From an uncultured Pseudomonadales bacterium (GTDB taxonomy: Bacteria; Patescibacteriota; Microgenomatia; UBA1400; UBA12028): DNA of 64,000 nt. A program made the position numbers and the translations under genes. The notes under the pieces are model-generated. The model saw only the letters and a list, made by a program, of their open reading frames with translations. It did no database searches and had not been told where the DNA came from. Location of the stretch: NCBI GenBank assembly GCA_964509365.1, contig CAZDWN010000002.1:231671-295670 (forward strand). The letters are read 5' to 3'. Of this stretch, positions 8,721 to 64,000 are shown piece after piece. Positions within the stretch are counted from its first letter, which is position 1; each line of letters begins with the position of its first letter.

Positions 8721-8738
8721 ATTTTCCCTTACTACATA

Positions 8739-10475: not shown

Positions 10476-10486
10476 AGGGTATTGTA

Positions 10487-13400
10487 TCAAGAGGATAAGA
10501 TTTTGTGTACCGTTTCTTGCGTTTCTTGATTCCAAGCGACGGTATACGGCAAACGCATGACCGTTTGCGCATCACCGTTCGGGATGACCACGGACAGCAT
10601 ATCCGGACCTGGCACTGATTTCAAATAGGTACCGATCTCTTGCAGTTTTTCTTTTGGTACTCCTCGTGGGATCGTCAACACCGCTCCTGCCGCCACTTGT
10701 GGGACGATGACTTGAGGCTCCCTCGCTTTTTCCACTTGCAGCGAGAGTTTCTCTTCGCGCAACGACAATTTGCCTTTGAATATGACAATCCCATCTTTTT
10801 TGAAAAATTCTTTGCACTGGGCATACGTTCGAGGGAATGCGACAAATTCTAGACTCCCGGTTCCATCTTCCAGTGTCCCAAAACACATTTCTTCCTGCTT
10901 CACTTTCGTCAGCACGGTGCGGACAGAGGAGATATAGCCTCCGAGTGTGACGACTTTCTCTGCATCGATACTCGGGTCGAGTGCGCCGATCTTATGTGAC
11001 GTCATCTTTCCCACTTCTTCGAGAGCATCGGCCATCGGATGTCTCGTGAGATAAAATCCCAAGAGCTCTTTTTCAAACGAAAGAAGTTCACCTTGCGGAT
11101 ACTCAGGAAGCTTCTCAAATGTATCTTGCGCACTTTGCTTTTCTTCGATCCCTGTGAAGAGTCCATCTTGCCCTTCCACTTCGCCGGTCAGCCCTCCGAC
11201 ATTTGCGCGGATTGATTCCAAATTCTCAAGCATCGACGAGCGAGTCGAAAATGAATCAAATGCGCCCACTCGGATCAAACTCTCAAGTACTTTTTTATTG
11301 ATCTTCCGACTGTCACTCCGCTGCAGGAAATCAGTAAACGAGACAAATGGTCCAGCTTTGCGGGCCTCCACCATACTTTCGATAGCTGCCTCACCGACGT
11401 TTTTGATGGCTGACAAACCAAATCGAATTGCACCGTCATCGATCGAAAATCGAACCGCTGATTTGTTTATTTCAGGCGGGAGGACATTGATTCCCATGCG
11501 ACGACAATCCGCTACTGCTTGAGCGGTTTTCTCTTCTTTCCCTGCGCCCAAAGAGTTACTTTCTACCGAGAGCACGGCGCACATATACTCGATGGGGTAA
11601 TTCGCTTTCATCCAGCCTGTGTAATACGAGATCATGGCATAACTCGCACTATGAGCCTTGTTGAATCCATAGCCTGCAAATTTCTCAATAAATCCCCAAA
11701 CGGTATCTATAGTCTTTTGATCGTACCCTTTGGCCTTGGCACCCTTTCCGAACTTTTCCTTTTCTTTGACCATGATCTCGATCTTTTTCTTTCCGATGGC
11801 TCTTCGCAATTCATCCGCTTGCCCGAGACTAAAACCCGCCATGACGCTCGCAGCTTGCATACACTGCTCTTGGTACAGCAAGATGCCGTAGGTGTCTTTG
11901 AGCACCGGTTCGAGATCTGGATGCGGATACTTGATGGACTTGGGATCTTGTTTACCAGCGATAAAGTCATCGATCAGCGCCATTGGACCAGGTCGATAGA
12001 GCGCGACCATAGCGGTAAGGTCAGAGAAGACGCTCGGTTTGAGGCCTCGTGCCAGCTTACGCATGCCGCCCGACTCCATTTGAAAGATACCGGTAGTCTC
12101 TCCCGACGCGATCATTTCGAAGACTTTTTTGTCGTCGAGTGGCACAGTTGCCAGCTCTACGGTTTTTCCTTGCGTTTCTTTGATGACGCGGATCGCTTCT
12201 TCGAGAATCGACAAGTTACGAAGACCCAAGAAATCCATCTTCAAGACACCGATCGCTTGATTACTGATATTGAGATCCAAGACTCGCATGTCATATTGCG
12301 TGACGATTTTTCCCGTCTTGTTATCTTTTTGGATCGGGGTGTACTCGATCAGCGGCTTATCAGAGATCAAGACGCCAGCGGCGTGCACACTCGTGTGTCT
12401 TGCGTTGCTTTCGACACGCATTGCAAGATCGAGCAATTGTTTGTACTTTGGCTGTTCGTAAAATGCTTGAAGTTCTGGGACACTTTGGAGGGCGTCGATA
12501 ATATGGACGACGTGGCCTTGAATTGGATCTGGAATCAGCTTGGCGATACGATCTGTCTCAGTGAAACTTAATCCCATCACGCGCCCGATATCACGGAGCG
12601 CTGCTCGACTTTCCATGCGTCCAAACGTGATGATTTGCGCGACTTTGTCGGCTCCATATTTTTGAGTGACGTAGGCGATCACTTCATCGCGTCGGTTATC
12701 TGCAAAATCGATATCGATATCTGGAGTACTGGATCGCTCTGGATTCATGAACCGTTCAAACGGCAGATCATGCACAAATGGATCCAGCGTTGTGATATTG
12801 AGAGAGTACGCAAGCATTGATCCTGCTGCACTTCCGCGACCAGGGCCAACGAAGATTCCATTATCTTTGGACCAGTTGACGAAATCTTGCACGATCAAAA
12901 AGTACGTTAGATAGCCTTTTTCCCCAATGACATCGATCTCATAATTGAGACGAGCGGCGACTGATGGGAGACTTCGCCCGTCAGGATGGATACGGAGGTC
13001 GTCACTTCGAAAATTGATATGCTCACTGATTCCAGGGTATCTATTTTCCAGTCTGCTAAATGCCAGTTTCTGAGTGAAGGTTTGCGGCGTGTCACCTTCT
13101 GGGATCTCAAAGATCGGGAAATGCGCTTTGCCAAGTGGGATTTCGAGATTACATTTGTCTGCAATTGCCATTGTATTCGCAACTGCGTCAGGAACTGCTG
13201 CAAAATCTATCGCCATCTCTTCTTGTGATTTGAGGTAAAAATCTGTTCCCGTCATCTTCATGCGATCGGTATCGCTGAGGAGTTTACGAGTCCCAATACA
13301 CAGGAGTGCATCTTGCGCAGGTGCGTCAGATTGACTGACATAGTGAGCATCATTCGTGGCGACGAGTGGGATCCCAAGTTCTCGTGAGAGCTTGATCATC

Positions 13401-13966
13401 TCCTCACAGTGTTTCTCGACTTCTGGGATCTCGGGATGATGTTGGATCTCTATGTAGAAGTCTTCACCAAAAAGATCTCGGTATTTTTTGAGTTCCTCAA
13501 CACACTCATCGCGCAGTCCGCTCATGAGGAGTTTACTAAATCGACTCGCAAGACAGCCAGACGTGACAATGAGGCCTTCGTGATATTTTGAAAGCGTTTC
13601 AAAATCAAACCGTGGTTTATACGAAAACCCCCGAAGATGAGCCTCACTGGTCAGCTTGAGGAGGTTTTGATACCCGACGTAGTTTTTGGCGAGCAGCAAG
13701 ATATGAAACTGATCTGCGCCTGGTTTTGCCTGTTTCTCTTCCATCGACCTGGCAGACATGTAGCCTTCGATCCCAATGATTGGTTTGAGTCCCTTATCTT
13801 TCGCTTTATTGTAAAAATGCACCGCACCATACATGACCCCGTGGTCAGTGATCGCGACAGCAGTTTGACCGTCGTCAGCTACTCGATCGAGAATATCAGG
13901 GATTTTCGAGAGCCCGTCGAGCAATGAGTACTCGGTGTGGACATGCAGATGGGTAAATGTCGCCAT
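10487..13966 (-). CDS. dnaE: DNA polymerase III alpha subunit
   Basis: PHP domain at the N-terminus (HLHVHTEYSLLDG). The 1159-aa length and polymerase core motifs fit DnaE. Confidence 0.9.
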   Translation of the reverse strand: MATFTHLHVHTEYSLLDGLSKIPDILDRVADDGQTAVAITDHGVMYGAVHFYNKAKDKGLKPIIGIEGYMSARSMEEKQAKPGADQFHILLLAKNYVGYQNLLKLTSEAHLRGFSYKPRFDFETLSKYHEGLIVTSGCLASRFSKLLMSGLRDECVEELKKYRDLFGEDFYIEIQHHPEIPEVEKHCEEMIKLSRELGIPLVATNDAHYVSQSDAPAQDALLCIGTRKLLSDTDRMKMTGTDFYLKSQEEMAIDFAAVPDAVANTMAIADKCNLEIPLGKAHFPIFEIPEGDTPQTFTQKLAFSRLENRYPGISEHINFRSDDLRIHPDGRSLPSVAARLNYEIDVIGEKGYLTYFLIVQDFVNWSKDNGIFVGPGRGSAAGSMLAYSLNITTLDPFVHDLPFERFMNPERSSTPDIDIDFADNRRDEVIAYVTQKYGADKVAQIITFGRMESRAALRDIGRVMGLSFTETDRIAKLIPDPIQGHVVHIIDALQSVPELQAFYEQPKYKQLLDLAMRVESNARHTSVHAAGVLISDKPLIEYTPIQKDNKTGKIVTQYDMRVLDLNISNQAIGVLKMDFLGLRNLSILEEAIRVIKETQGKTVELATVPLDDKKVFEMIASGETTGIFQMESGGMRKLARGLKPSVFSDLTAMVALYRPGPMALIDDFIAGKQDPKSIKYPHPDLEPVLKDTYGILLYQEQCMQAASVMAGFSLGQADELRRAIGKKKIEIMVKEKEKFGKGAKAKGYDQKTIDTVWGFIEKFAGYGFNKAHSASYAMISYYTGWMKANYPIEYMCAVLSVESNSLGAGKEEKTAQAVADCRRMGINVLPPEINKSAVRFSIDDGAIRFGLSAIKNVGEAAIESMVEARKAGPFVSFTDFLQRSDSRKINKKVLESLIRVGAFDSFSTRSSMLENLESIRANVGGLTGEVEGQDGLFTGIEEKQSAQDTFEKLPEYPQGELLSFEKELLGFYLTRHPMADALEEVGKMTSHKIGALDPSIDAEKVVTLGGYISSVRTVLTKVKQEEMCFGTLEDGTGSLEFVAFPRTYAQCKEFFKKDGIVIFKGKLSLREEKLSLQVEKAREPQVIVPQVAAGAVLTIPRGVPKEKLQEIGTYLKSVPGPDMLSVVIPNGDAQTVMRLPYTVAWNQETQETVHKILSS

Positions 13967-29783: not shown

Positions 29784-30797
29784 CTAATTCCATTTCCACA
29801 ATTTCTTGTACTTGAGATACACTCGATTCCACGTTTGCTGACGTGCCCATTGGTATGCATCATCAATTTGTTTTGTGTAGTCTTCGCTTTTGATCAAAGT
29901 CAGCGCTTGTTTGAGCTCAAGCTCCGAACGGACGATGACCATGTCTTGGGAGCGAGGATGTGCCATCAGGTAATCTACTTTTAGTTCGTCAGCAGCGTAT
30001 GCGACGACGAGAGTCCTGCATTGCATTGCCTCCACAATAGCCAGATAGGATGAGACACACGCGATGTCGTACTGTGGGAAAACGGCACAGCTATCGTCGA
30101 TAGTGCCAAGTTTTGACCCTGGTCCGAACATGTCCAACTGGCAATTGTCCAGTGACCTGATTACGTTCTCATAGATCCTTGCTCCCGTGTCTTGACTGAT
30201 TCTCCCGACGAAGACTCCTCTGATTTTTTTGGATTTTGGTAATTGGATTTTGAAATTTGGTAGACATTCTCCTCCTCCATACGTCACTTCGTCAGGTTTG
30301 GTGCCGTACCATTTCTCGATCCAGTATCCGACTGCCATGCTACCACTCGTCCAACGTTGGATCATCTGTCTAGTCCGCTTCGCTTTCGGATCAATGTAAA
30401 GCTCACGGCCTTCGCCCGCCGAAGTCTTGACGGAGGAGGGCTCAAAGCCATGGTACGTGATATAGACTTTTTTCCACGGAAACAGGATTCGGATTGGCCA
30501 ATACCAGAAGAAGACGTCGTGGATCTGGATGACGTCAGCTTGGATAAACGTCAATATGTGGGCCAGCATCCAGCTCCAGATCTCGATCCGTGCTTGGATT
30601 TTGCCTCCATTCGCAGTCACTCGGTGGACATTCACTCCATCGATTACTTCCTCGCTCTTAAGCTGCGAGTCGTGTTTGAGCGTGAATACGTCAACATGAT
30701 GACCGTCCTTGATCGCTTCCCTCGATATGCCAGACACATGTTTTTCTACTCCTCCGATGTGAGGGGCATACAGCCTGCATATCATTACAATCTTCAT
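29784..30797 (-). CDS. glycosyltransferase family 4 (GT-B fold)
   Basis: MKIVMICRLYAPHIGGVEKHV, the GT4 N-terminal signature. Confidence 0.7.
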   Translation of the reverse strand: MKIVMICRLYAPHIGGVEKHVSGISREAIKDGHHVDVFTLKHDSQLKSEEVIDGVNVHRVTANGGKIQARIEIWSWMLAHILTFIQADVIQIHDVFFWYWPIRILFPWKKVYITYHGFEPSSVKTSAGEGRELYIDPKAKRTRQMIQRWTSGSMAVGYWIEKWYGTKPDEVTYGGGECLPNFKIQLPKSKKIRGVFVGRISQDTGARIYENVIRSLDNCQLDMFGPGSKLGTIDDSCAVFPQYDIACVSSYLAIVEAMQCRTLVVAYAADELKVDYLMAHPRSQDMVIVRSELELKQALTLIKSEDYTKQIDDAYQWARQQTWNRVYLKYKKLWKWN

Positions 30798-33538: not shown

Positions 33539-33642
33539 AGGCACCCCCTTGCTTCTATTTACCAGAGGATCCATTCTATTGACTTGGCATTCTCTCGAAT
33601 TCTTCTGATATACTCTGGCCGTACTGTCGACAGGAGATCACT

Positions 33643-35934: not shown

Positions 35935-36957
35935 TTATCGGGATGCCAAAGTGAGATTTGGATCGCGGTCAAAGTCCAGAGAATTGGGTTCATGGTGAGC
36001 AGCGGCAATACCGATCATGGCAGCATTGTCGGTGCACAACCGAGAAGTGTAAGGGAAATAGACAGGTAGATCATGACTTTTCCCAAAGGCCCGTAGTGCC
36101 TTCCGCACTTCAAGATTTTTGATCACTCCACCTCCCACGATGATCGAGGTGAGCTCTCTATTTGCGATCGCATACTCGAGTTTCTCAGTAAGATGTTTGA
36201 TCGCGGCGGTTTGAAATGCCAGTGCGATATCAGCGATGTTTTGCCGTGTGAGGTTGGGATACGATGCGACGATCCGTGACGCTGCCGTCTTGAGTCCCGA
36301 AAAACTCATATCACTACTATGGATTTGGCGCATCGGGACCGGAAACTTCACAGCTCCCGGAGTCCCTTCCCTGGCAATCTTCTCAAGGAAAGGTCCAGCC
36401 GGATATCCGAGCCCTAGCATTCTTCCGATCTTGTCATAGGCTTCCCCCATCGCATCATCCAATGTCTTCCCCACGATCTCATACTCTCCAACCGCTTTTG
36501 CATAGACAAATTGCGTATTTCCTCCTGAAAGTATCACACCCATGATCGGAAATTGAGAATTGAAAATTGAAAATTGAGAATTCTTTCGTTTTGGCTGCGC
36601 CAAAAACGAAAGCAAGTGTCCTTCTAGATGATTGACCGCGATGATTGGCTTTTTATACTTCAGTGCCAGTTCTTTTGCTTTGGCGATGCCCACCTCCAGA
36701 CAAATCGAAAGACCTGGTCCTCGGGTGACCGCGATGCGATCGATGTCGTCCCAAGTTTTGTGAGCCCGTTTGAGCGCGAGCGCTATCACCGCATCGATAT
36801 GATCTTCATGAGATTTTCGAGCCAGTCGAGGCACGATGCCTCCATATTCCAGATGGAGTGAGAGGTCGGTTGTCAGGACATTCGAGAGGATGGTCGTGTC
36901 TTGCGTGACTGCGACGGCAGTGTCATCAAAGGAGGTGTCGATAGCGAGCATGGTCAT
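35935..36957 (-). CDS. tsaD: tRNA N6-adenosine threonylcarbamoyltransferase
   Basis: MLAIDTSFDDTAVAV...HLEGH...VILSGG, as in TsaD. The gene contains a heptanucleotide-repeat-encoded insertion KNSQFSIFNSQF. Confidence 0.85.
   Translation of the reverse strand: MTMLAIDTSFDDTAVAVTQDTTILSNVLTTDLSLHLEYGGIVPRLARKSHEDHIDAVIALALKRAHKTWDDIDRIAVTRGPGLSICLEVGIAKAKELALKYKKPIIAVNHLEGHLLSFLAQPKRKNSQFSIFNSQFPIMGVILSGGNTQFVYAKAVGEYEIVGKTLDDAMGEAYDKIGRMLGLGYPAGPFLEKIAREGTPGAVKFPVPMRQIHSSDMSFSGLKTAASRIVASYPNLTRQNIADIALAFQTAAIKHLTEKLEYAIANRELTSIIVGGGVIKNLEVRKALRAFGKSHDLPVYFPYTSRLCTDNAAMIGIAAAHHEPNSLDFDRDPNLTLASR
36549..36583. repeat. 5 x 7-nt tandem array (GAAATTG AGAATTG AAAATTG AAAATTG AGAATTC) inside tsaD
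   Basis: Direct reading of the sequence. It encodes KNSQFSIFNSQF in-frame. Confidence 0.75.
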
Positions 36958-38030
36958 ACAGTGTAGGAAATGAGGCGATCATTCTCGGCCTCACCGAGTT
37001 TGATATGCACACGGATGATTTTTGCTTGGGCCTCATATTTTTTGAAGTCATCATGGAATCGATCCGCCCACTCGAGCGCAATGACTGCATTTGTAGTGAT
37101 TGCATCATCAAGTCCGATATCAGTGAGTTCATGAAAGTGCTGAAGTTTCCAGCAGTCGATATGGACAAATGTCCCCGGCATGCTTTCATTTTCAAATTCA
37201 AATTCATTCGCGATCGCATACGTCGGCGAGCTCACCGACTCCGTGATACCCAGGCCTTTAGCAATTCCTTGGATGGCGTGCGTCTTCCCGGCCCCCATCT
37301 CACCAGAAAACAAAAAGAAGACTGGAGTGTAGGTGTAGTACGAGCGAAATCGCTTCACAAATTGGGTAAACCAGTTCACTGTCTCTTCTTCACTGTGGCT
37401 GACATACGTCTCCGATGAGACAAAGTTTGCCGCTCCTTGCCGCAGTACTTGGATATCGTCCACCGTTGTGTCGATGACCGTGCTCGGTTCATTGTGTGGC
37501 AGTTCGCCGATATCGATCACCAAATCAATGAGCGCCTGCTGCGACTGCGAAGTATTGTCGAGGATGTCTTGGATCGTGTAGGGTCGCTTTTTGTTTGAAG
37601 CATTGGCGCCAGTCGCGCTGATACCGTGTCCAAACGCAGCGATCAGAGCAAGTGCCAGATCGTGTTTTGGGATACGGATACCTATTTTCCCATCTGTAGA
37701 CGCGATGCCAGGGGCGACCACGCCGTTTCCAGTGGAGATCACTGTGACTGGCCCTGGCAAGAATCGCTCATACACACCCTCAGCAGTATGATTGAGCGAT
37801 ACATATCGCTGCGCCATTGTCTTGTCAGTGACGGCGACAGAGATTGGCTTGCCGTCTCGTTTGCCTTTGTAGTCGAGGAGTTTTTGGACCGCTTCAGAGT
37901 TTTCCACATCGACCGCGACTCCATACGTCGTCTCCGTCGGATAGATGACGATTCCTCCAGACCGCAAGACACGTACCGCTTCACTGAGAATGTCTGCTTC
38001 CTTGGTGGTTTTCGATTGGATGATCGTCAC
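36954..38030 (-). CDS. fusion protein: TsaC/Sua5/YrdC threonylcarbamoyl-AMP synthase (N-terminal) plus TsaE/YjeE P-loop ATPase (C-terminal)
   Basis: N-terminus IVIYPTETTYGVAVD, the YrdC motif. C-terminus FSGEMGAGKT...SPTYAIANEF...HIDCWKL, the TsaE Walker A and conserved motifs. Confidence 0.75.
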   Translation of the reverse strand: MTIIQSKTTKEADILSEAVRVLRSGGIVIYPTETTYGVAVDVENSEAVQKLLDYKGKRDGKPISVAVTDKTMAQRYVSLNHTAEGVYERFLPGPVTVISTGNGVVAPGIASTDGKIGIRIPKHDLALALIAAFGHGISATGANASNKKRPYTIQDILDNTSQSQQALIDLVIDIGELPHNEPSTVIDTTVDDIQVLRQGAANFVSSETYVSHSEEETVNWFTQFVKRFRSYYTYTPVFFLFSGEMGAGKTHAIQGIAKGLGITESVSSPTYAIANEFEFENESMPGTFVHIDCWKLQHFHELTDIGLDDAITTNAVIALEWADRFHDDFKKYEAQAKIIRVHIKLGEAENDRLISYTV

Positions 38031-38451: not shown

Positions 38452-38528
38452 TGGACTTGTAGCTCAGCTGGTTAGAGCGCACGATTCACATTCGTGAGGT
38501 CAGAGGTTCGATCCCTCTCAGGTCCACC
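38452..38528 (+). tRNA. tRNA-Val (anticodon CAC), CCA encoded
   Basis: GGACUUGUAGCUCAGCUGGUUAGAGC. Anticodon stem CACGA/UCGUG with loop UUCACAU. Ends in ACCA. Confidence 0.85.
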
Positions 38529-38586
38529 AAAAAAAATCGCTGTTTGGAAAATAAGACTCCAACGTCACTGTAGTATACTGACTCGT

Positions 38587-39252
38587 ATGTGCGGTGCATT
38601 TGGACTGGAATATATTTTTGATATCGGACTCGCTGAGCGATACTCCTTTACATCTTCAGAAAAAATGCTCGCCGACATCGAAGCATTTCGTTTTAATCCT
38701 CATAGTGAGATCCCCACGGTCTCCCGAAATAGCCCAAATAAGCTGGTGATGCGGTACTGGTCGATCATCCCTCCATGGATCCAGGACCCAAAGGATCTCA
38801 AATATCCTACGTTCAATGCGCGATCTGAAACCCTTCGCGAGAAACCCACCTACAAGCCAGCTTGGGACAAAGGTCAGCGATGCCTCATTATCGCCACACA
38901 ATTTTACGAGTGGCATCGAGTGTACGACAAAACCGGGAAAAAAGTGCTCCAGCGTACTCCCTACACATTTCGGGTACGCGGTGAAAAAACATTTGCGATG
39001 GCTGGACTTTGGTCGACGTGGAAAGACTTTGAATGTACGACCGTGATCACGACCGAAGCCAACAAAGAAATGGCACCAATTCACGATCGATCACCGGTGA
39101 TCTTGACGAAAGAGCAAGAAGAGGTGTGGCTTTCGCACGAGACTTTGCTTGATGATGCATATGCGCTTCTTAAACCTCCAAAAGATGGGACGCTTGAGCT
39201 ATGTGAAGGATTGCAGTCCTCCCCTTGCAACCCGTCTACGACACAGGGATAA
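38587..39252 (+). CDS. SOS-response-associated peptidase (SRAP/YedK/HMCES family, abasic-site processing)
   Basis: Begins MCGAF, so the catalytic Cys is at position 2. The SRAP fold length fits. Confidence 0.7.
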   Translation: MCGAFGLEYIFDIGLAERYSFTSSEKMLADIEAFRFNPHSEIPTVSRNSPNKLVMRYWSIIPPWIQDPKDLKYPTFNARSETLREKPTYKPAWDKGQRCLIIATQFYEWHRVYDKTGKKVLQRTPYTFRVRGEKTFAMAGLWSTWKDFECTTVITTEANKEMAPIHDRSPVILTKEQEEVWLSHETLLDDAYALLKPPKDGTLELCEGLQSSPCNPSTTQG

Positions 39253-42096: not shown

Positions 42097-42122
42097 ACAA
42101 AATAGCTGTTAGTTATTAGCTG

Positions 42123-43280
42123 TTAGCTTTTAGTTTTAAGTTGAAAGACAAAAACTTCGCGTTTTGTCGTCGCATCTGGTCTATCATAGATGAGGCCAGA
42201 GAATACACTATTGTATCCGTAGGCCTCGAGTCTGTCAACCAGAGGTGCGAGGGTATACACGGTCTTTTTGATCTCGATTCGTGGAAGTGCAATAGCGATT
42301 CTACTTCCCGGCTCCATGACGGTCGCCAATTGTTTGAACGCTCCGAGGTACAGCTTTTCTAGTCCTTTAAAGATATTTGGGACTGCACCTGGCTTTGGCT
42401 TCAATGCTCCCAAGTATCCTTCCGCGGCGACGCCGTGTACTTTTCCACCGATCATTTCTGGTTTTAGATGGGCGACGTCACTCGTGGCGACTGCAAATTG
42501 ACTCGTCAACTTGTATTGCCCGATGAGCCACTCAGCATTTTTCTGTGTTTGGCCGACCGCTTCGACACGTAGATCGGTACCTACTCCAGTATACCCAAGC
42601 ATCATGGCTTCCATGACCACGGTACCCGTTCCGCAAAATGGATCCAAAAGTCGTTTCCCTTCACCACCTTGTGGCAAAGCGAGGTTGACGAGGATTCTGG
42701 CAATTTTTGGAGGGAGCATGCCGTGTTGGCGATCTGCGGCTGGCTTCATGCGATCGCGGACTGTCCAGTCATCGATATTTTGGATGGCTATGGTGTATCC
42801 GATGTAGGTGACTGCTTTTTCGCGGACGATGACGCATTCCTCGACATTTTGATGGAGGAGGACACTCGCTCCGAGTCCGGCGCGTGTCCCTTCGACAAAT
42901 CGCACGGTATATCCGGTATCTTTGAGAGCTTCTTTGATACGGTAGTGGTCCACGGCTTTGAGAGTATCTCTCCCGATCTCAGCCAGTCCAAACCAGATTT
43001 TCTGTTTTTCTTTGCCAAGTTTCTCAAGAATTGTGACACATTTGGTTTCCAATTCTTCAGTCGATGGCTCACTTAAGGTCTCTTCGATCACTGAAATCTT
43101 TAAAGTACCCCCGAGGATTGCCTGCAACTGCGTCGCTTCTACTAGCGAGAGGTTGGCGACTTTGATGATGGTCGGCGTGATGGTCTCGATGGTCGCTTCA
43201 TTGTAGCGAGCATGCAAGACCGTCTCGAGCTCTGCAAAAGCAAGCTCGTGAGTACGGCCAATGAAGAATAAAAATTCCAT
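42123..43280 (-). CDS. THUMP-domain SAM-dependent RNA (m2G-type) methyltransferase (RlmL/Trm14-like)
   Basis: LLDPFCGTGT motif I and an N-terminal THUMP-like region. Located between rplU and rpmA. Confidence 0.65.
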   Translation of the reverse strand: MEFLFFIGRTHELAFAELETVLHARYNEATIETITPTIIKVANLSLVEATQLQAILGGTLKISVIEETLSEPSTEELETKCVTILEKLGKEKQKIWFGLAEIGRDTLKAVDHYRIKEALKDTGYTVRFVEGTRAGLGASVLLHQNVEECVIVREKAVTYIGYTIAIQNIDDWTVRDRMKPAADRQHGMLPPKIARILVNLALPQGGEGKRLLDPFCGTGTVVMEAMMLGYTGVGTDLRVEAVGQTQKNAEWLIGQYKLTSQFAVATSDVAHLKPEMIGGKVHGVAAEGYLGALKPKPGAVPNIFKGLEKLYLGAFKQLATVMEPGSRIAIALPRIEIKKTVYTLAPLVDRLEAYGYNSVFSGLIYDRPDATTKREVFVFQLKTKS

Positions 43281-43334
43281 ATATCTAAGGGTAAAAGGGA
43301 AAGGACAAAGGGTAAAGTAGGAACCCTGCTCGCT

Positions 43335-46525: not shown

Positions 46526-46900
46526 ATGAGAAAAATACTCAGACAAATTACTTCGCATTTGCATTTTCATATCACAGGTGTCCATCCGCCTGACGGATTT
46601 ATACCTGCTTTGGAGACGCTACTGTTACTTCTCGCATCTGGCACGATGTTTTACTCACATTTTGAAGGCTGGTCGTACTTTGATTCGTTTTACTTTACGG
46701 TCGTCACGATCACGACAGTCGGGTATGGTGACTTGCATCCTACGTCGACTCTTTCCAAGAGCTTTACCATGCTACTGATCTTCATGGGAGTGGGGTTGGG
46801 CTTGTACGTGATCACTACCTTCGCTGAGAGTGTCCGTAATGGACGTGAGCGAAGACTCGAACGATTGGAATCACTTCTCAAAAAAACCACTGCTATTTAG
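46526..46900 (+). CDS. minimal two-TM K+ channel (pore signature TVGYGD)
   Basis: TTVGYGD selectivity filter flanked by two hydrophobic helices. Confidence 0.65.
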   Translation: MRKILRQITSHLHFHITGVHPPDGFIPALETLLLLLASGTMFYSHFEGWSYFDSFYFTVVTITTVGYGDLHPTSTLSKSFTMLLIFMGVGLGLYVITTFAESVRNGRERRLERLESLLKKTTAI

Positions 46901-49836
46901 ATTTTCGTAATACTTGCTTCGCCGACGGTGAGATTGCGGACCAGAGTCTTCGCTTTGAGCTCGGATTCAAATTGTGAGGGCCAAGACGGCAAGGTCGCAT
47001 CGACGAGATCACCGACATCGACACCAGGGGTCGCTTTGCGCAGGTCTTGGATCGTGCGGACGGCTTCTCGCATCTCCCCTTCCGCGATCAATTCTGGCGT
47101 CAGTGTCTTATCGAGTGAGACAACCAGCTTTTCTTTGTCGACTTTCTGCTCATATTTTTTGATGTTGGTTTCCGCGAGAATGACTTTCCACACATCATCA
47201 CCTAGTTCCATTGGGACAAAGCCGACGATCTTCGCGAGCGGTTGACGTAGTTTGATACTGTGAGTCTTGCGGATTCGATGTGCATCTTCGACGACACTTT
47301 GAGCGACTTTCATCTCAGATTCGAGTTTGTCATTCATGAAGACTTCCAAATCCACGAGATTTGGCCAGTCAGTCAAGTGAATAGATTCGCCGGATTCACT
47401 GATCCCTTGATAGATGAGCTCTGTGGTGAACGGGATAAATGGTGCAAACAGCTTGCAGAGCGTGACCAAGGCGCGAGCCAAGATGTCTTTGCTCTCTGGA
47501 TACTTGTCTTCTTTGAGCCGTTCTCTCGAGAGTCTGACATACCATGTGGAAAACTCAGCGGTGAAATCCATCAAGAGTCTCGTCGCTAAGACTACATCAT
47601 ATTCATCCATTGCAATCGTGACATCGCGGACGACATGCGCCAGTCGTGAGAGCAACCAACGATCAAGTACATGCAGAGTTGAGAGTTGATAGTTTACGGT
47701 CCTTGCTTTCACTTTCCCCTTTGCGCTTTCCCCTTTGCTCTTCCCGTAGAGCGCATAGAACCCATACACATTCCAGAGAATATTCATCACTTTGTTTTGG
47801 ATCTCATGCACTGACTTCTCAGCAAAATTGAGATTTTCTCCACGCATGATTGGACTGCTCATCAAATACAAACGGAGAGAATCCACTCCATATTTGTTGA
47901 TGACGTCCATCGGATCAGGATAATTTTTCTTACTCTTGCTCATCTTCGTCCCATCTTCAGCGAGGATTGTCCCTGTCGTGAGACTATTCTCAAATGCATT
48001 TGACCCGAAGATCCCGACAGAGAGGACGTGCATGCAGTAAAACCAAGCTCTTGTCTGTGCGATATATTCAGTGATGAACTGCGCCGGATAGGCACCTTCA
48101 AACTTCTCTTTATTTTCAAACGGATAATGGATCTGCGCAAATGGCATCGATCCTGACTCGACCCAACAATCAAACACTTCAAAGATACGTTTTCCTTTGA
48201 TCGTTTTTTCGTCATCGATCCATAGTTCGATATCATCGATGAATTCACGATGAAGATCAGTGACTTGTGAAGCTCTGTTTGGATCCACGGCCCATTTTTT
48301 GAGCTCCTCGACTGATCCAACTACTCTCCAAAGCGGTTTCTTCCCTTGACCCGCCGAAGTCCCGTCCTGCGGGACGGAGGAGGTCCAGATGGGCATTGGT
48401 GTCCCCCAGTATCGACTTCGTGATACATTCCAATCTGGCGCTGTCTCGATCCCTTTGCCAAATCTGCCGTACTTGAGATGTTCAGGGAACCAATTGATAT
48501 TTTCATTGGCAGCGCTCATTGCTGGTTTGAGTGATTGCACATCGATAAACCAAGCAGGCATGGCATTGAAGTAGAGAGGAGTGCCACAGCGATAGCAAAA
48601 TGGATATGAGTGAGTGAAGTGATTGGCATTGAGGACTAGTCCTCGCTGTGTTAAGTCTTCGACGACCCAATTTTCTGATTTTTTATAAAATTGCCCAGCG
48701 AGCGGTGTGACGAAGTCGAAGAATTTTCCCTGATCATCGAGTGTCGGGACGCATGGCAAGTCTCGCTCCAGTGCGAGCTTGTAGTCATCTTCTCCGAAGA
48801 TCGCTGCCGTGTGTACGATACCGGATCCATCCTCAAGACTCACAAAGTCAGCAGTGGTCATGTAGAAGGCTTTTTTTCCTTCCAGTGGCATGTATGGATA
48901 CAGCCGCTCATATTCCATGCCTGCGAGTTCTGATCCTTTTACTGTTTTGATCACTTCGGCTTTCTTGGATCCCAACAGGTGTTCGATGTGTCCAAGTCGC
49001 TCTTTCGCTACCCAGTAGTATTCTTTTTCGTTGGTTTGTTCATTGAGATGCTCGATCATCGAGTACTCAGCATTTGGAAGTACCGCCAATGCGACGTTTC
49101 CCGGCAAGGTCCATGGCGTCGTCGTCCAAGCCACGAAATATGAGTTGAGAGTTGAGAGTTCAGAGTGGAGAGAGTTTTTTTTCACTTTGAACTTTACGTA
49201 GACGCTCCAATCCTCGACATCTTTGTAGGAGTTGTCCATGGCTATTTCAAAGTTTGAGAGTGGCGTACTGCAGCGAGGACAATACAAGATCACTTTTCTT
49301 CCCTGGTAGACGAGACCTTTGTCATAGAGCTGCTTAAATCCCCACCATACGCTCTCCATGAATGTGGAGTCCATGGTTTTGTAGTTATTGTCAAAATCGA
49401 CCCATCGACCAAGACGTTCGATCGTTTTCTTCCATTCCTTATCGTATTTCATGATGGAAGCACGACAAGCAGCGTTGAAGGTATCGATCCCTAGCTCTTC
49501 GATCCCTTTCTTTCCCCCTTTGAGGCCAAGTTCTTTTTCGATGGCGTTCTCGATAGGTACTCCATGACAGTCCCATCCCCATACGCGCTCGACGCGCTTG
49601 CCTTTCATCGTCTGGTAGCGAGGGATGACATCTTTGCTCGTGGAGCTCAACAAATGCCCATAATGTGGTAATCCATTTGCAAATGGAGGCCCATCGTAGA
49701 AAATGTACGGATCATCCGCAGGACGATTCTCAACAGATTTTTTGAATGCATCAGAGTCGTTCCAAAATTGGAGCACTTCTTCTTCAAGTTTCGCAAAATC
49801 CGGTCGCCCTGGTGTATATGAAGGTAGTTTTTTCAT
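46897..49836 (-). CDS. ileS: isoleucyl-tRNA synthetase
   Basis: HIGH (PHYGHLL) and KMSKS motifs. 979 aa. Contains two heptanucleotide-array insertions. Confidence 0.9.
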   Translation of the reverse strand: MKKLPSYTPGRPDFAKLEEEVLQFWNDSDAFKKSVENRPADDPYIFYDGPPFANGLPHYGHLLSSTSKDVIPRYQTMKGKRVERVWGWDCHGVPIENAIEKELGLKGGKKGIEELGIDTFNAACRASIMKYDKEWKKTIERLGRWVDFDNNYKTMDSTFMESVWWGFKQLYDKGLVYQGRKVILYCPRCSTPLSNFEIAMDNSYKDVEDWSVYVKFKVKKNSLHSELSTLNSYFVAWTTTPWTLPGNVALAVLPNAEYSMIEHLNEQTNEKEYYWVAKERLGHIEHLLGSKKAEVIKTVKGSELAGMEYERLYPYMPLEGKKAFYMTTADFVSLEDGSGIVHTAAIFGEDDYKLALERDLPCVPTLDDQGKFFDFVTPLAGQFYKKSENWVVEDLTQRGLVLNANHFTHSYPFCYRCGTPLYFNAMPAWFIDVQSLKPAMSAANENINWFPEHLKYGRFGKGIETAPDWNVSRSRYWGTPMPIWTSSVPQDGTSAGQGKKPLWRVVGSVEELKKWAVDPNRASQVTDLHREFIDDIELWIDDEKTIKGKRIFEVFDCWVESGSMPFAQIHYPFENKEKFEGAYPAQFITEYIAQTRAWFYCMHVLSVGIFGSNAFENSLTTGTILAEDGTKMSKSKKNYPDPMDVINKYGVDSLRLYLMSSPIMRGENLNFAEKSVHEIQNKVMNILWNVYGFYALYGKSKGESAKGKVKARTVNYQLSTLHVLDRWLLSRLAHVVRDVTIAMDEYDVVLATRLLMDFTAEFSTWYVRLSRERLKEDKYPESKDILARALVTLCKLFAPFIPFTTELIYQGISESGESIHLTDWPNLVDLEVFMNDKLESEMKVAQSVVEDAHRIRKTHSIKLRQPLAKIVGFVPMELGDDVWKVILAETNIKKYEQKVDKEKLVVSLDKTLTPELIAEGEMREAVRTIQDLRKATPGVDVGDLVDATLPSWPSQFESELKAKTLVRNLTVGEASITKI
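47706..47747. repeat. About 5-6 x 7-nt tandem array (TTTCCCC TTTGCGC TTTCCCC TTTGCTC TTCCCGT) inside ileS
   Basis: Direct reading of the sequence. It encodes YGKSKGESAKGKVKA in-frame. Confidence 0.7.
49142..49176. repeat. 5 x 7-nt tandem array (GAGTTGA GAGTTGA GAGTTCA GAGTGGA GAGAGTT) inside ileS
   Basis: Direct reading of the sequence. It encodes KKNSLHSELSTLNSY in-frame. Confidence 0.75.
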
Positions 49837-56230: not shown

Positions 56231-57436
56231 TTATGGCGCGTTCACACTTTCTATCCATTTTTTATATTGTCGACTCCGATCGGCATAATCTTCAAACAAT
56301 CCAAACGACGGTGATGCAGTCGACATGAGTACACTTGACCCGCTTGGAGTCAGTGCATACGCCTGAGTGATTGCCTCTTCCATGGACTGCACTGGTACGC
56401 ACTTGATCGAAGGAGCCAGCGCAGAGACGAGATCTGCGATGATTGCTCCTGTGGTCGGAAAGTGTATCAATGTGTGGACGGTTGATGTCGCGATTTTTGT
56501 GGCGAGCGCATCATATGATTGATGTCGATCAAATCCTCCGACGATGAGAGTCGCGAGGTGTGGCGTCGAATCGATCGCTAAGATCGTCGCTTCAGGGATC
56601 GTCGCCACAGCGTCATCGTAAAACGAAATGCCACGTTGTTCAGCCACTTTCTCCATGCGACCAGGAAGAGTCTTCAGCGTGGACAGAGCCTCTTTAATTT
56701 GTTTTTCAGATGCCTTGCGTTCGCGAGCGATCAGCACTGCTGGAATGTAATTGGTTGGCACGTCCAGAAGCTTCGCATTATATGGAATTCGTTTGGAGCG
56801 AACTTCGCTCAAGAGCGCGACGAGGTTTGGATACTCATCTCGATACAAACACAAATCAGTTTCCGTCTGTAACAGAAACAGATGTTGCTTGGCTCTGGTG
56901 TATTCTTCCATGGTGTCGTAATAGTCCAAATGATCCTGATACAGTGATGTGAAGACGGCGATATGCGTCCCGCGATGCAGTGACTCAGTTTGAAATGCGC
57001 TCATCTCAAACACTGCGGTCGTCTCGTCATCCATTTGATCGACAAAATCAAGGGCTGGTCTGCCGATATTTCCGATGAGCACTGCATGATGGCCAAGCGC
57101 GTTGAGGACGTGGGCGATCGCATGAGCCGTCGTGCTCTTGCCTTTGGTCCCAGTCACTGCGATGGTTTGCTCGCCAAACAGTTGCGTAAAGAGATCAGCT
57201 TGACTGGTCAAATAGGATTTTGACGATAGCGTGAGAAATTTTTTGGGGATGCCCGGTGATTTGAAAACGACATCTACACTTGGGACATCAAAGTGGTCTT
57301 GGTGATTCTCAAAAATGAAGACTTTGGTATGCGGGAAGTACTTTCGCAAAAACTGGGTCGTGCTTTTTCCCTCGCGACCGTTCCCGACGATTGCGATGCT
57401 TTGAGCGCTAGTGAGCCAGTCAGGAAAATCAGGCAT
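56231..57436 (-). CDS. murD: UDP-N-acetylmuramoylalanine--D-glutamate ligase
   Basis: Mur ligase P-loop VTGTKGKSTT. Position between mraY and ftsW. Confidence 0.8.
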   Translation of the reverse strand: MPDFPDWLTSAQSIAIVGNGREGKSTTQFLRKYFPHTKVFIFENHQDHFDVPSVDVVFKSPGIPKKFLTLSSKSYLTSQADLFTQLFGEQTIAVTGTKGKSTTAHAIAHVLNALGHHAVLIGNIGRPALDFVDQMDDETTAVFEMSAFQTESLHRGTHIAVFTSLYQDHLDYYDTMEEYTRAKQHLFLLQTETDLCLYRDEYPNLVALLSEVRSKRIPYNAKLLDVPTNYIPAVLIARERKASEKQIKEALSTLKTLPGRMEKVAEQRGISFYDDAVATIPEATILAIDSTPHLATLIVGGFDRHQSYDALATKIATSTVHTLIHFPTTGAIIADLVSALAPSIKCVPVQSMEEAITQAYALTPSGSSVLMSTASPSFGLFEDYADRSRQYKKWIESVNAP

Positions 57437-58709
57437 AGTGTTGTAAGAGCAATGGTAACTCTTTTCCTTCTCGTCTGTGTAGTGCCATCTTGAGTGCTTC
57501 GATTGATTCCGATCGAGTACCGACACATTCAAACGGTTTGAACTCAACTTTCCCTAGGAGTGCATCGAAATGTGGTATCAAATGATCTTGATTCATCACA
57601 TCAGATCGAAAGATGCGGGCGATTGTCTCATCATCGAGATATGCTGAGAGCAGCAACGCGACAAAGGCACATTTTCCACATTTTCCGCACCACACGTTGT
57701 CTTTTTGGCCGACATTGCAGCTATGGAACACTTCAAAATATTCTGGAAAAGTGACAAATTTTTCCATGATCGCCAGTTCATTCATCGAACGCAAATAACT
57801 AAAATATCGTGGTGAGCTCGATCCAAACAGTGAAGTGACATACGACTGAAAGTCGCGTTCAAATTCTACTGATTTGGAGTACTGGTGATTAATATCGATT
57901 CCTTCCCAAGTTCCTGTCGGCTCGTTACTGCTCGATTCATTCGAGATCGCGATCTGGGGTATCTCATACAGTCGTGCAGTCAGTATCGTAAAAAATGCGA
58001 GCACTGATGAGAATGGAGTATGCCCATTGGGATGACCTTCACTATTCAGTTCACTGAGACGAGAGTCTAGCGTTCGTGAAAAGACGATATCACCAAGTCT
58101 CGGATGTCTGGATCCAAACAGATCGATGACGTCTGCAGATGATCCCTTGAGTCCTGACCAGGTGTAGATGGCTCGACCCTCAACGGCCAGCAACTCTAGT
58201 GTCACGATCGAATCTTTGCCTCCACCTACTGGGACCAGCACAGCTGATAGCTTAGAGCTTGTAGCTTCTAGCTTGTCATCCTGAGCGACCTGGTACTCCA
58301 GGCGGTCGAAGGATAGTTTTCTTTCCGTGCTTTTGAATTCCGGCTTGAACGGCTTAATCTTATTTTGATAGAAAAATTCTCCGAGTCCAAAGTAAAACAG
58401 CTTTTGCCAAAATTGGATTTGAGTTGCATCTAAGTTCCCGCACTGGATCTCTATCGTCGGAGATAAAAATGCTTTCCAGTAGCTGGGGATCTCGGCGATT
58501 CCAAGTTGGAAGATATACTCATCGAGTTCAGGTTTTGAGATCTTTTTAACCATCTCTTCAGTCACACCTGAGATCGTATCGACAGTCGTCAGTTTCTCAT
58601 CGCCACAAGAGAACTGAAATGAGAGCTCGATTAGACCCGGCTTTAATTCGTATGAGTATGAGTCATACGAAAACAGAGGATACGTTTTTTGTAATTCTTC
58701 GAATGTCAT
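57429..58709 (-). CDS. hypothetical PP-loop (SGGxDS-type) ATP pyrophosphatase-like protein with CxxCGKC motif, inserted in the dcw cluster
   Basis: LVPVGGGKDS matches the PP-loop. A C-terminal WCGKCGKC cysteine cluster is present. The gene contains repeat copy C and a heptamer array in-frame. Confidence 0.5.
   Translation of the reverse strand: MTFEELQKTYPLFSYDSYSYELKPGLIELSFQFSCGDEKLTTVDTISGVTEEMVKKISKPELDEYIFQLGIAEIPSYWKAFLSPTIEIQCGNLDATQIQFWQKLFYFGLGEFFYQNKIKPFKPEFKSTERKLSFDRLEYQVAQDDKLEATSSKLSAVLVPVGGGKDSIVTLELLAVEGRAIYTWSGLKGSSADVIDLFGSRHPRLGDIVFSRTLDSRLSELNSEGHPNGHTPFSSVLAFFTILTARLYEIPQIAISNESSSNEPTGTWEGIDINHQYSKSVEFERDFQSYVTSLFGSSSPRYFSYLRSMNELAIMEKFVTFPEYFEVFHSCNVGQKDNVWCGKCGKCAFVALLLSAYLDDETIARIFRSDVMNQDHLIPHFDALLGKVEFKPFECVGTRSESIEALKMALHRREGKELPLLLQHYA
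58242..58276. repeat. 5 x 7-nt tandem array (AGCTGAT AGCTTAG AGCTTGT AGCTTCT AGCTTGT) abutting repeat copy C inside the PP-loop gene
   Basis: Direct reading of the sequence. It encodes KLEATSSKLSAV in-frame. Confidence 0.7.
58275..58321. repeat. Structured repeat element copy C, in-frame inside the PP-loop gene
   Basis: GTCATCCTGAGC, then CCTGG-tact-CCAGG, then GGTCGAAGGATAGTTTTC. Compensatory stem changes relative to copies A and B. Confidence 0.7.
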
Positions 58710-59805: not shown

Positions 59806-59827
59806 ACGGCTCGACTGATCTCCTGGT

Positions 59828-61156
59828 CTACTGGTCTACTTGTCTAACTATCTTTGCTCCCATACTATTAAATTGTTCATCCAGATGCTCGTATCCTCGA
59901 TCGATTTGGCTTTTCGGATCACGGAGGATCGTCTCCCCAGTTGCACTCATCCCTGCGATCATGAGCGTAGCTCCGTGACGAAGATCCTTCACATCAAATG
60001 CTCCGCCGACGAGCGAGGCCGGACCGGTGATCCTTGCAGCATGAAGATCTGTTGCCGATCGATCCTTCCAATTAAAGTTATAGACTGATTCTGGGTCAGT
60101 GACAATCGGATTGTAGAGCTCGATATCTGCACCCATTGAGACGAGCGCAGGCACGTACTGGAATCGACTTTGAGAGATCGTCTCATGCACGGTGCTGACT
60201 CCATATGCCTGTGTCATGAGGATGACCCACAGTGGTTGCCAATCAGTCATAAAGCCCGGGAATATGGCAGTCTCGACATCGATCGCTTGCAGTGGCCCTT
60301 TATAAAAAAAGCGTATTCCGAAATCACCGACTTGCACTCCTGCACCGATCAGTTCAAGTTTTTCCAAGAAGCTCTCTAAGTCTTTGGCTTTGGCGTTTTC
60401 GACGACGATATCGCCTTTTGTGGCAAGCGCTGCGACTGCAAACGAGACGATTTGATTGCGGTCTGGCAAGATCTTATGGGTGGCCCCATGTAAGACGTCG
60501 ACACCCTCGATCTCGATGATTCGATTTGGAAGTCGTTTGATTTTCCCGCCCATGGCATTTAAGAATACGATGAGGTCATCTATTTCTGGTTCTTCAGCAG
60601 CATTTTCAAGAATTGTTTTGCCTTTGGCACGCACAGCAGCAAGAAGAAGTGTCTCAGTCCCCGTGTGAGTATTTTTCTCAAAACGATAGGTAGTACCCAC
60701 GAGCTCATTTGCAGTACAGATGATCAGTCCATCCTTTTGTTCGACGGTCACTCCAAGCGCTCGCAACCCATCAAAGTGGCGTTCGAGTGGACGCTTGCCG
60801 ATCTTGTCTCCACCTGGTTCGGGGACGACTGCTTTGCCGAATTTATGAAGGAATGCAGGGATAAACATGGTCGAGGCACGAGATGCTTCTCCATGCGTCG
60901 AGTCTACTTCAAAGTGCGTCAACCCCTCAGGGTCGACCACGTAGCATCGCTCACCGACTTCTTCGGCTCTGGCTCCAAGACTATTGATCAGTTTGGCGAC
61001 GAGCGCGACATCACTGATATGAGAAAAATTTAAAATCCTTGAGGGCGAGTCTGCCATCAGTGCCGCGATCATCAGTTTATAGGAAGCATTTTTGGCACCG
61101 CCGACGCGCACAGATCCGAAAAGTGGAGTGTTTCCCTGGACGCGAAAAGTCGGCAT
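59828..61156 (-). CDS. murA: UDP-N-acetylglucosamine 1-carboxyvinyltransferase with Asp at the fosfomycin-target Cys position
   Basis: The EPT fold. The motif reads PEPGGDKIGKRP, aligned to E. coli LPGGCTIGARP. Confidence 0.85.
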   Translation of the reverse strand: MPTFRVQGNTPLFGSVRVGGAKNASYKLMIAALMADSPSRILNFSHISDVALVAKLINSLGARAEEVGERCYVVDPEGLTHFEVDSTHGEASRASTMFIPAFLHKFGKAVVPEPGGDKIGKRPLERHFDGLRALGVTVEQKDGLIICTANELVGTTYRFEKNTHTGTETLLLAAVRAKGKTILENAAEEPEIDDLIVFLNAMGGKIKRLPNRIIEIEGVDVLHGATHKILPDRNQIVSFAVAALATKGDIVVENAKAKDLESFLEKLELIGAGVQVGDFGIRFFYKGPLQAIDVETAIFPGFMTDWQPLWVILMTQAYGVSTVHETISQSRFQYVPALVSMGADIELYNPIVTDPESVYNFNWKDRSATDLHAARITGPASLVGGAFDVKDLRHGATLMIAGMSATGETILRDPKSQIDRGYEHLDEQFNSMGAKIVRQVDQ

Positions 61157-63641: not shown

Positions 63642-63665
63642 AGTGAGTTTTTACTGATCTCCTGA

Positions 63666-64000
63666 TCACCTGGTCTCCTGGTCCACTGATATCTTCTCAT
63701 ATACTTTATAAATATCCCCAGCTCCCATAGTGATAAAAACATCGGTTGACTTTAGAATTTCTGGAATTCGCCCTGCGAGTTCATTATAATTTGACACTTG
63801 GCATTGGACATTCGTCATTCGCGAAGCGAGCAGGCTTGAACTCACACTCGGATCCTCCTGTTCTCTTGCACTAGCAAAAATGTCGAGCAAGATGACCTCA
63901 TCTGCCAGTGATAATGAGCTCACAAATCCATCAAATAATGCCTTGGTGCGAGAGTACGTATGAGGCTGAAATGCCACGACGACGCGTTTCCCTGGTCGCC
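63666..64000 (-). CDS. murC: C-terminal part of a Mur ligase (probably UDP-N-acetylmuramate--L-alanine ligase). The gene continues beyond the window.
   Basis: Mur ligase C-terminal domain sequence. Lies upstream of murB. Confidence 0.5.
   Translation of the reverse strand, partial: RPGKRVVVAFQPHTYSRTKALFDGFVSSLSLADEVILLDIFASAREQEDPSVSSSLLASRMTNVQCQVSNYNELAGRIPEILKSTDVFITMGAGDIYKVYEKISVDQETR

Follow-up and report, generated by a model that had tools for sequence, protein, structure and literature searches.

Ten tandem arrays of a 7-nt unit are present in the 64-kb window studied here (the whole stretch of 64,000 nt that was analysed, taken from contig CAZDWN010000002.1 of assembly GCA_964509365.1), and most of them are translated as parts of conserved proteins such as TsaD and IleS. 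The explanation that we favour, at a probability of roughly 0.6, is that these arrays are heptanucleotide microsatellites arising from a lineage-specific bias in strand misalignment, and that selection has filtered them so that the arrays in coding DNA are in frame, free of stop codons and located in loops. Judging from its proteins, the host is a bacterium of the Patescibacteria, or candidate phyla radiation (CPR), and is Microgenomates/Woesebacteria-like. The best IleS match among the GTDB species representatives was a Candidatus Microgenomates metagenome-assembled genome (MAG; 57%), the nearest named relative in a larger protein collection was Candidatus Woesebacteria (75%), and other relatives reached 84-89%.

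The arrays were listed with Tandem Repeats Finder (TRF), from which the periods, copy numbers and percentages of matches given below are taken. They have 2.9-4.9 copies with 66-92% matches, and nine of the ten fall within 4.1-4.9 copies and 66-88% matches. None is perfect, the longest reaches 4.9 copies, and six measure exactly 31 nt. Four of them (in tsaD, at two sites of ileS and in a MurL-family gene) had been reported in a preliminary description of the sequence, and their coordinates, units and peptides were confirmed by the sequence and by TRF. The other six (8728-8758, 30227-30260, 42103-42133, 43287-43317, 47675-47694 and 62895-62925) were absent from that description. The arrays, all on the minus strand, are as follows:

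8728-8758, minus strand: heptamer array over the pyrG stop codon and the codons of the C-terminal tail (4.4 copies, 75%)
30227-30260, minus strand: heptamer array in a GT4 glycosyltransferase gene (4.9 copies, 66%)
36545-36587, minus strand: heptamer array in the tsaD loop (TRF 36550-36582, 4.7 copies, 88%)
42103-42133, minus strand: heptamer array over the 3'-terminal codons, stop codon included, of a UPF0020-type methyltransferase gene (4.4 copies, 79%; period 14 at 88%)
43287-43317, minus strand: heptamer array, intergenic between rplU and the methyltransferase gene (4.4 copies, 70%)
47675-47694, minus strand: short 7-periodic stretch in ileS (2.9 copies, 92%)
47706-47747, minus strand: heptamer array, ileS site 2 (TRF 47712-47742, 4.4 copies, 75%; period 14 at 94%)
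49141-49176, minus strand: heptamer array, ileS site 1 (TRF 49142-49172, 4.4 copies, 87%)
58242-58276, minus strand: heptamer array in the inter-domain linker encoded by the MurL-family gene (TRF 58248-58276, 4.1 copies, 77%; period 14 at 86%)
62895-62925, minus strand: heptamer array in murB (4.4 copies, 70%; period 14 at 88%)

The genes that carry or adjoin them were assigned with NCBIfam and Pfam profiles:

8739-10535, minus strand: pyrG (profile match)
29784-30797, minus strand: GT4 glycosyltransferase gene (Pfam Glyco_transf_4)
35935-36957, minus strand: tsaD, 340 aa (NCBIfam TIGR03723, 338 bits, above the cut-off)
42123-43280, minus strand: UPF0020-type methyltransferase gene, with the array spanning its 3' end
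46897-49836, minus strand: ileS, 979 aa (NCBIfam TIGR00392, 846 bits)
57429-58709, minus strand: MurL-family gene, 426 aa (NCBIfam NF041275, 222 bits, below the cut-off)
62640-63641, minus strand: murB (profile match)

Our own period scan was compared with 40 order-3 Markov simulations of the window, using a loose threshold of at least 15/21 matches and a strict one of at least 17/21 matches at the given period. At period 7, nine arrays were observed under the loose threshold against 0.45 expected (maximum of 2 in any of the 40 runs), and five under the strict threshold against 0.02 expected. The same scan of the window gave none at periods 4, 5, 10 and 11, and 2-3 at period 8. This confirms that the arrays are real and not a product of chance, as the preliminary description had supposed. 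With their head-to-tail 7-nt units, a count above that expected from composition and a preference for period 7, they belong to the heptanucleotide class of long simple sequence repeats (LSSRs), which in prokaryotes have units of 5-11 nt.

Seven of the ten arrays lie within open reading frames (ORFs), two overlap stop codons and one is intergenic. All seven interior arrays are translated in frame and without stops, so that the read-through reported for the first four extends to the others. By alignment, five of these seven sit in variable loops, linkers or lineage-specific insertions, and the glycosyltransferase array, a sixth, probably does so too. Nine different units are found among the ten arrays, and no second copy of a unit dimer was detected elsewhere in the window, except for a pair in ileS that shares AACTCTC. 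Searches of the window for inverted array pairs, for target duplications or terminal repeats flanking the arrays, and for Rfam families or tRNAs overlapping any array were all negative. Since units vary from site to site and dispersed copies of them are lacking in the window, the arrays point to a local origin, which argues against the site-specific insertion process that had been offered as one source.

The tsaD array reads AATTCTC AATTTTC AATTTTC AATTCTC AATTT on the coding strand and encodes NSQFSIFNSQF (residues 126-136), between HLEGHLL and VILSGG, where the preliminary description had put it. The loop that bears it exceeds that of solved TsaD structures by 9-10 aa. In the AlphaFold model (mean predicted local distance difference test score, pLDDT, of 92) it forms a coil, the part predicted with least confidence, and scores 65 and 78 over 10-residue blocks. 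Comparison with related loci (numbered L0xx) revealed a different array, (ACAAATG)x4.7, at the same site of an 89%-identical relative (L085), a decayed array in a 77% relative and none in a 76% relative. Against L087/L081 the loop of the window shows a net change of -3 aa (-9 nt). Arrays with an AATT core, in a common register, were present at this site in four sequenced loci (AATTYTC in the window, AATTTAC in L083, AATTTAG in L094 and AAATTCY in L095), each ending at conserved Phe-Pro codons; in the three others TsaD is only ~48-51% identical to that of the window. A protein-level screen of 120 TsaD homologues for 7-residue periodicity yielded five runs (5/120), all within this loop. Immediately upstream of tsaD and overlapping it, a fused TsaC(Sua5)-TsaE gene occupies 36954-38030, and the fusion is kept in L081, L083 and L094.

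In ileS, the 36-nt array at site 1 (coding strand AACTCTC TCCACTC TGAACTC TCAACTC TCAACTC A) encodes NSLHSELSTLNS, immediately before YFVAWTTTPWTL, and precedes WTTTPWTL, in agreement with the earlier placement. It stands in place of 12 nt in the 85%-identical relative L087, a net gain of 8 aa (+24 nt). Site 2 (AAGAGCA AAGGGGA AAGCGCA AAGGGGA AAG; peptide KSKGESAKGKV) differs from L087/L081 by -1 aa (-3 nt), which is about no net length change, and it has equal or near-equal length in three relatives with three different contents. Both sites fall in gap-rich alignment columns, where other array-rich lineages bear insertions or arrays too. The relative L089 (84% IleS identity) carries a perfect (CAAAATT)x3.7 at site 1 and a perfect (AAGAGAC)x3.9 at site 2, without any length change relative to L087. 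A third loop separates L092 from L090: their IleS proteins are 98% identical and differ by an array and 12 nt. This loop (L092 ~11430-11470, L090 11430-11448) is the sole difference, and in one of the two it is 12 nt longer and reads AAATTTC AAATTCC AAAAACC AAAAGCC AAAC. As its units are already unlike each other, arrays may be born imperfect or may diverge fast.

The short stretch at 47675-47694 (AACTATC AACTCTC AACTCT) is not an insertion. It codes for the conserved peptide NYQLSTL, which is kept in L087 with a DNA sequence, (ATCAATT)x2.7, that is also 7-periodic. This stretch and site 1, 1.45 kb apart, are both built on the unit AACTCTC and match exactly over 13 nt, AACTCTCAACTCT. The sharing could be due to ectopic templating or to chance (rough p of ~0.02-0.04).

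The fourth array of the preliminary description was assigned there to a 'PP-loop gene'. That label has to be replaced, as the profile evidence from NCBIfam and Pfam is for a member of the MurL epimerase family; its orthologue in L087 matches Pfam MurL_N plus MurL_epimerase_C, and it adjoins a Mur-ligase gene in a dcw-like cluster. The array (ACAAGCT AGAAGCT ACAAGCT CTAAGCT on the coding strand; peptide DKLEATSSKLSA) lies just ahead of LVPVGGGKDS, which holds the GGGKDS motif, within an unalignable inter-domain linker that is 8 aa (+24 nt) longer than in L087. Taken together, the alignments with orthologues support in part the expectation that the four arrays are insertions. The segments are indeed longer than those of canonical orthologues, but against close relatives the differences are +8, +8, -1 and -3 aa, and therefore they are not always net insertions.

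The murB array (CAGCGAA CAGCTCA CAGCGAT CAGCGCA CAG; peptide SSEQLTAISAQ) is found inside ~27 residues that are missing from solved MurB, between MFRNP and AGFLID, and the array of the GT4 glycosyltransferase gene encodes PNFKIQLPKSKK. The pyrG array provides the tail peptide KVDSSK and the stop codon; PyrG can be aligned to solved CTP synthases only to residues ~591-594 of 598. The intergenic array at 43287-43317 (CTTTACC CTTTGTC CTTTCCC TTTTACC CTT) ends 6 nt before the ATG of the methyltransferase gene.

The preference for seven is not restricted to the window. In 1.37 Mb of related loci, surrounding ileS in 80 species, our own scan detected 103 period-7 arrays, against 14-54 at periods 5, 6, 8, 9 and 10; with TRF the number of arrays having 3 or more copies was 134 at period 7, compared with 40, 29, 20 and 11 at periods 6, 8, 9 and 10. 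Hence, the earlier suggestion of a shared generating process holds, and this process has been active in many related genomes as well. The density of period-7 arrays with at least 3 copies, per 100 kb, was 14.1 in the window, 13.5 in the non-Saccharibacteria Patescibacteria loci, 1.6 in the loci labelled as Saccharibacteria and 0.8 in those labelled as spirochaetes. Periods 6 and 9 were flat across these groups and period 8 was mildly raised in the array-rich one. Thus, the trait is lineage-wide in the Patescibacteria loci sampled, yet patchy. The 85% relative L087/L081 is syntenic with the window from mraY to tsaD and is almost array-free over 34 kb of synteny.

Long ORFs contain 49% of the related-locus arrays with at least 3 copies, a share probably lower than the coding density. 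Arrays of the 4.x-copy class, equivalent to one resident unit plus three added ones, were enriched in ORFs (35/56, compared with 31/78 in all other classes; Fisher p=0.014). The size distribution of coding arrays has its peak at 31-34 nt, and many of the relatives' ORF arrays are perfect, with 4.1-4.6 copies; their intergenic arrays reach 6-9 copies. Identical arrays were recovered from independent samples (L083 = L084, L081 = L082). No array differences were seen among members of 90%-identity clusters, and two variable-gap pattern scans of metagenomes found no length variants of the tsaD arrays of the window and L083. The comparison across relatives indicates that arrays are repeatedly created, homogenised and replaced at a few places that the proteins appear to tolerate.

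Adjacent inverted pairs of arrays were observed in intergenic DNA of some relatives (L021 1864-1928, 2904-2964, 6718-6784 and 9837-9911; L036 4871-4937; L005 6978-7063), and hairpins with tandem-heptamer stems are predicted for them. Many units of L021 are alike and form a CCACGCC-like family.

The favoured explanation takes as its basis the period-7 excess and its lineage distribution, the position in loops, the in-frame translation and the different arrays at shared loops, all of them observed directly. Strand misalignment (slippage) in the host and in many other Patescibacteria would favour tandem copies in a 7-nt register and, less often, in an 8-nt one. Arrays could be born anywhere in the DNA; in coding DNA, purifying selection would spare those that preserve the frame and are free of stops in all three frames. 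Surviving coding arrays would thus be confined to unconstrained loops, linkers and termini, where they would be translated as low-complexity peptides of 10-12 residues. Within such permissive loops they would turn over by re-homogenisation, unit replacement, expansion, trimming and eventual decay. The ORF enrichment of the 4.x-copy class, the 49% share in ORFs and the in-frame, stop-free state of the interior arrays are signs of such a filter. The arrays of the window would then be neutral passengers and not switches.

Several results weigh against this explanation. Stepwise slippage by +7 or +14 nt would frameshift an essential gene, and the path from one copy to four is left unexplained. The net changes against relatives are +24, +24, -3 and -9 nt, and not the +21 nt of three added units; a simple model of '+3 units = +21 nt' fits only partly, as it agrees with the ORF enrichment of the 4.x-copy class and disagrees with the measured changes. 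The perfect site 1 array of L089, which lacks a length change, calls for expansion with a matching deletion or for a conversion-type event. A 14-nt substructure is also apparent, since units two apart differ by 1.30 and neighbours by 1.64, and the variation among units is clustered in few positions (p=2e-5); together these argue that the arrays are not the simple random decay of a perfect array. The end of the TsaD arrays on the same Phe-Pro codons in at least four loci, with the peptide pattern in 5/120 homologues at ~46-50% identity, needs very long persistence or an effect of sequence context. Finally, in coding arrays of the window and of related loci, the sense strand is G-poor (12% vs 24%) and A-rich, and 15/37 have at most one G. 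A stop-codon filter was considered as the cause and rejected: simulation gave 25% G and 16% G-free arrays against the observed 12% and 15/37 (p=4e-4). The depletion is therefore unexplained by that filter. A 4-nt palindrome core (AATT, AGCT, GATC or TCGA), which might have hinted at a nickase or restriction-enzyme origin, was counted by hand in 17/37 of these arrays against ~36% expected; this was unconvincing and the idea was dropped.

The main rival is a templated burst in one step, in which a repair or restart polymerase would re-prime on a 7-8-nt register and write a patch of ~20-35 nt, sometimes in place of resident DNA. We consider it unlikely, and it nevertheless accounts for much that slippage leaves awkward: in-frame arrays in essential genes although +7 and +14 intermediates would be lethal, the narrow size range (31 nt in six arrays of the window and the 31-34 nt peak of coding arrays), net insertions of 24 nt that are not divisible by 7, and the length-neutral replacement at site 1 of L089 together with the equal or near-equal length of site 2 despite its three contents. 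A preference for four units is also known from the intergenic heptamers of Xanthomonas, which are beyond the reach of frame selection (PMC4692102). Nonetheless, the burst comes without an enzyme candidate, the 14-nt substructure hints at more than one event per array, and the intergenic arrays of 6-9 copies match ordinary expansion. By reasoning, expansion followed by an in-frame deletion would also yield the exact sequence of L089. A more general version of the idea, likewise doubtful, is that a 7-8-nt-ruler process, either dedicated or intrinsic to a polymerase, operates in many Patescibacteria, writing such patches in single events and re-homogenising them, and thus continually supplies essential proteins with inserted and rewritten loops. 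If so, it would hit the same TsaD and IleS loops repeatedly across the radiation, and some of the lineage-specific insertions that characterise CPR proteins could stem from it. Selection might instead act on the product, for example a TsaD motif N-x-x-F-x-I-x-N-x-x-F-P, a heptad-like peptide or an RNA element, with the DNA periodicity being secondary. The recurrence of the TsaD-loop pattern in homologues as distant as ~46-50% identity to the window favours this; a peptide, however, needs no 7-nt period, and the DNA is 7-periodic in 4/4 sequenced cases. Moreover, the loop sequences are unrelated in the closest relatives, AlphaFold gives a low-confidence coil, the peptides of the remaining arrays are unrelated and no Rfam family overlaps an array, all of which make selection on the product improbable.

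The arrays could also belong to a dispersed repeat family spread by insertion or by a mobile process, like the cyanobacterial STRR, the Xanthomonas GGGAATC and the Beggiatoaceae TAACTGA repeats. The one-family-like units of L021, the inverted pairs of some relatives (as in Xanthomonas, PMC4692102), the AACTCTC shared within ileS and the unit similarity within loci, slightly above that between loci (p=0.005) although confounded by base composition, would agree with this. All other arrays of the window, by contrast, have their own unit without dimer copies in the 64 kb covered, flanking target duplications and terminal repeats are lacking, and the tsaD arrays end at local conserved codons, so that a dispersed family is highly improbable. 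We give very little credence to phase variation (contingency tracts that switch or modulate genes by gain or loss of units), the architecture to which the preliminary description had likened the arrays. A unit that is not a multiple of three does lie inside ORFs, as in neuO, and the copy number of two octamer arrays and one heptamer array just before start codons could tune translation. Yet the tracts have only 4-5 imperfect units (66-92% matches), against 3-53 perfect ones in neuO (PMC13001214), and every interior array is in frame. The genes ileS, tsaD, murB and pyrG are essential in model bacteria, where an OFF state would be lethal; the hosts are not surface, restriction-modification or virulence genes, the tracts are interior or at gene ends, and no strain variants were seen among the loci and cluster members compared. 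Chance low-complexity sequence, or an artefact of assembly or amplification, has a negligible probability. It is true that the arrays are neither long nor perfect, that the loops have a low-complexity, A- and K-rich sequence, and that 47675-47694 may be a coincidental periodicity in a conserved peptide; but the excess over the Markov controls is limited to period 7, reading frames are intact, dozens of assemblies made independently in different projects contain arrays, and the same arrays were obtained from independent samples.

Strand misalignment with a heptamer bias also has precedents. According to Mrazek et al. (2007), whose results are summarised in PMC4679880 and PMC4692102, no class of long simple sequence repeats is more over-represented in many bacteria than the heptamers, and the cause proposed is slippage of a polymerase whose footprint is ~7 nt. 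The large-genome hosts of that work include Burkholderia, Xanthomonas, cyanobacteria and actinobacteria, and the repeats likeliest to occur in coding regions have units that are multiples of three. Like those LSSRs, the arrays studied here show an excess of 7-nt units among sizes of 5-11 nt and lineages rich in them are phylogenetically scattered; they differ in belonging to a CPR bacterium with a small genome and, in the window, in being mostly translated, as parts of genes that are essential in model bacteria. The STRR, the Xanthomonas/Nostoc GGGAATC/GGGGAYT (PMC4692102) and the Beggiatoaceae TAACTGA (PMC4679880) families each have a single consensus unit throughout the genome, are intergenic and are under-represented in ORFs, and G-quadruplex or regulatory roles have been proposed for such families (PMC4692102, PMC4679880). 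They resemble the present arrays in having typically ~4 tandem heptamers, in varying in length and sequence between close relatives and in forming intergenic inverted pairs, found here in L021, L036 and L005. Unlike them, each array of the window has its own, mostly G-poor unit and most lie inside ORFs. Cyanobacterial STRR/HIP1 as the identity of the arrays was ruled out by taxonomy, the nearest relatives being Microgenomates/Woesebacteria MAGs. In E. coli K1, the heptanucleotide units of neuO are found close to the 5' end of its coding sequence, and neuO is a non-essential, phage-borne gene that is often out of frame in natural isolates (PMC13001214). It shares with the arrays described here a 7-nt unit in coding sequence, readable in all three frames, and a full-length protein that needs a preserved frame, whereas the latter, with 4-5 units that are imperfect, occupy interior loops of housekeeping genes and keep the frame in every case.

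Heptamer over-representation in bacteria and the STRR, Xanthomonas and Beggiatoaceae families are already established. Lineage-specific loop insertions and low-complexity segments are also familiar, as variable surface loops tolerate extra residues and the same sites are hit in different lineages; what differs here is that a 7-nt period still shows how the inserted or rewritten loop arose at the DNA level. What appears to be undescribed is the wide occurrence of heptamers in CPR genomes, and likewise the recurrence of in-frame arrays in loops. No account of CPR heptamer arrays or of recurrent in-frame loop arrays in essential genes was found in a literature search of incomplete coverage, which is weak evidence of novelty.

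Two octamer arrays were also detected by TRF, both upstream of genes of a dcw-type cluster:

59814-59846, minus strand: octamer array upstream of mraY (period 8, 4.1 copies, 84%)
63654-63680, minus strand: octamer array upstream of murB (period 8, 3.4 copies, 84%)

The array at 59814-59846 reads TAGACAAG TAGACCAG TAGACCAG GAGATCAG and lies 9 nt upstream of the mraY start, and that at 63654-63680 reads GAGACCAG GTGATCAG GAGATCAG and lies 13 nt upstream of the murB start. Both have the unit GAGAYCAG on the minus (gene) strand, with a Shine-Dalgarno-like AGGAGA; since this element near the start codon is held within the unit, it is the ribosome-binding region itself that is repeated 3-4 times in tandem. 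A single copy of the octamer, CAGGAGATCAC, is present at 33631-33641, directly preceding an ATG at 33643. The cluster comprises murB, hflX, murA, mraY, murL, a Mur-ligase gene, ftsW, murG, one unidentified gene, ftsA and ftsZ. Its MurL-family and MurD2-like Mur-ligase pair (56231-58709) is kept in L087, L090 and L092, and suggests the Xanthomonas-type route to the D-Glu of peptidoglycan, by ligation of L-Glu and epimerisation, in a CPR bacterium. The genes for the replicative DNA polymerase III alpha (dnaE, 1159 aa; 10487-13966) and for an SOS-response-associated peptidase (SRAP; 38494-39252) are both array-free. DnaE would be the natural candidate in which to look for a 7-nt slippage preference intrinsic to the polymerase.

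For the biology of these bacteria, the arrays represent a mutational signature that extends over a large bacterial radiation. A process working in a 7-nt register is visible even in essential genes, where its products would survive only in frame and in permissive loops, and this provides a concrete DNA-level origin for some of the lineage-specific loop insertions in conserved CPR proteins. In annotation, such heptamer tracts should not be taken as evidence of pseudogenes or of phase variation. The unexplained preference of bacteria for heptamers is thereby extended to genomes with minimal replication and repair machinery, and the comparison of array-rich with array-poor sister lineages may make the question of why the unit is seven more tractable.

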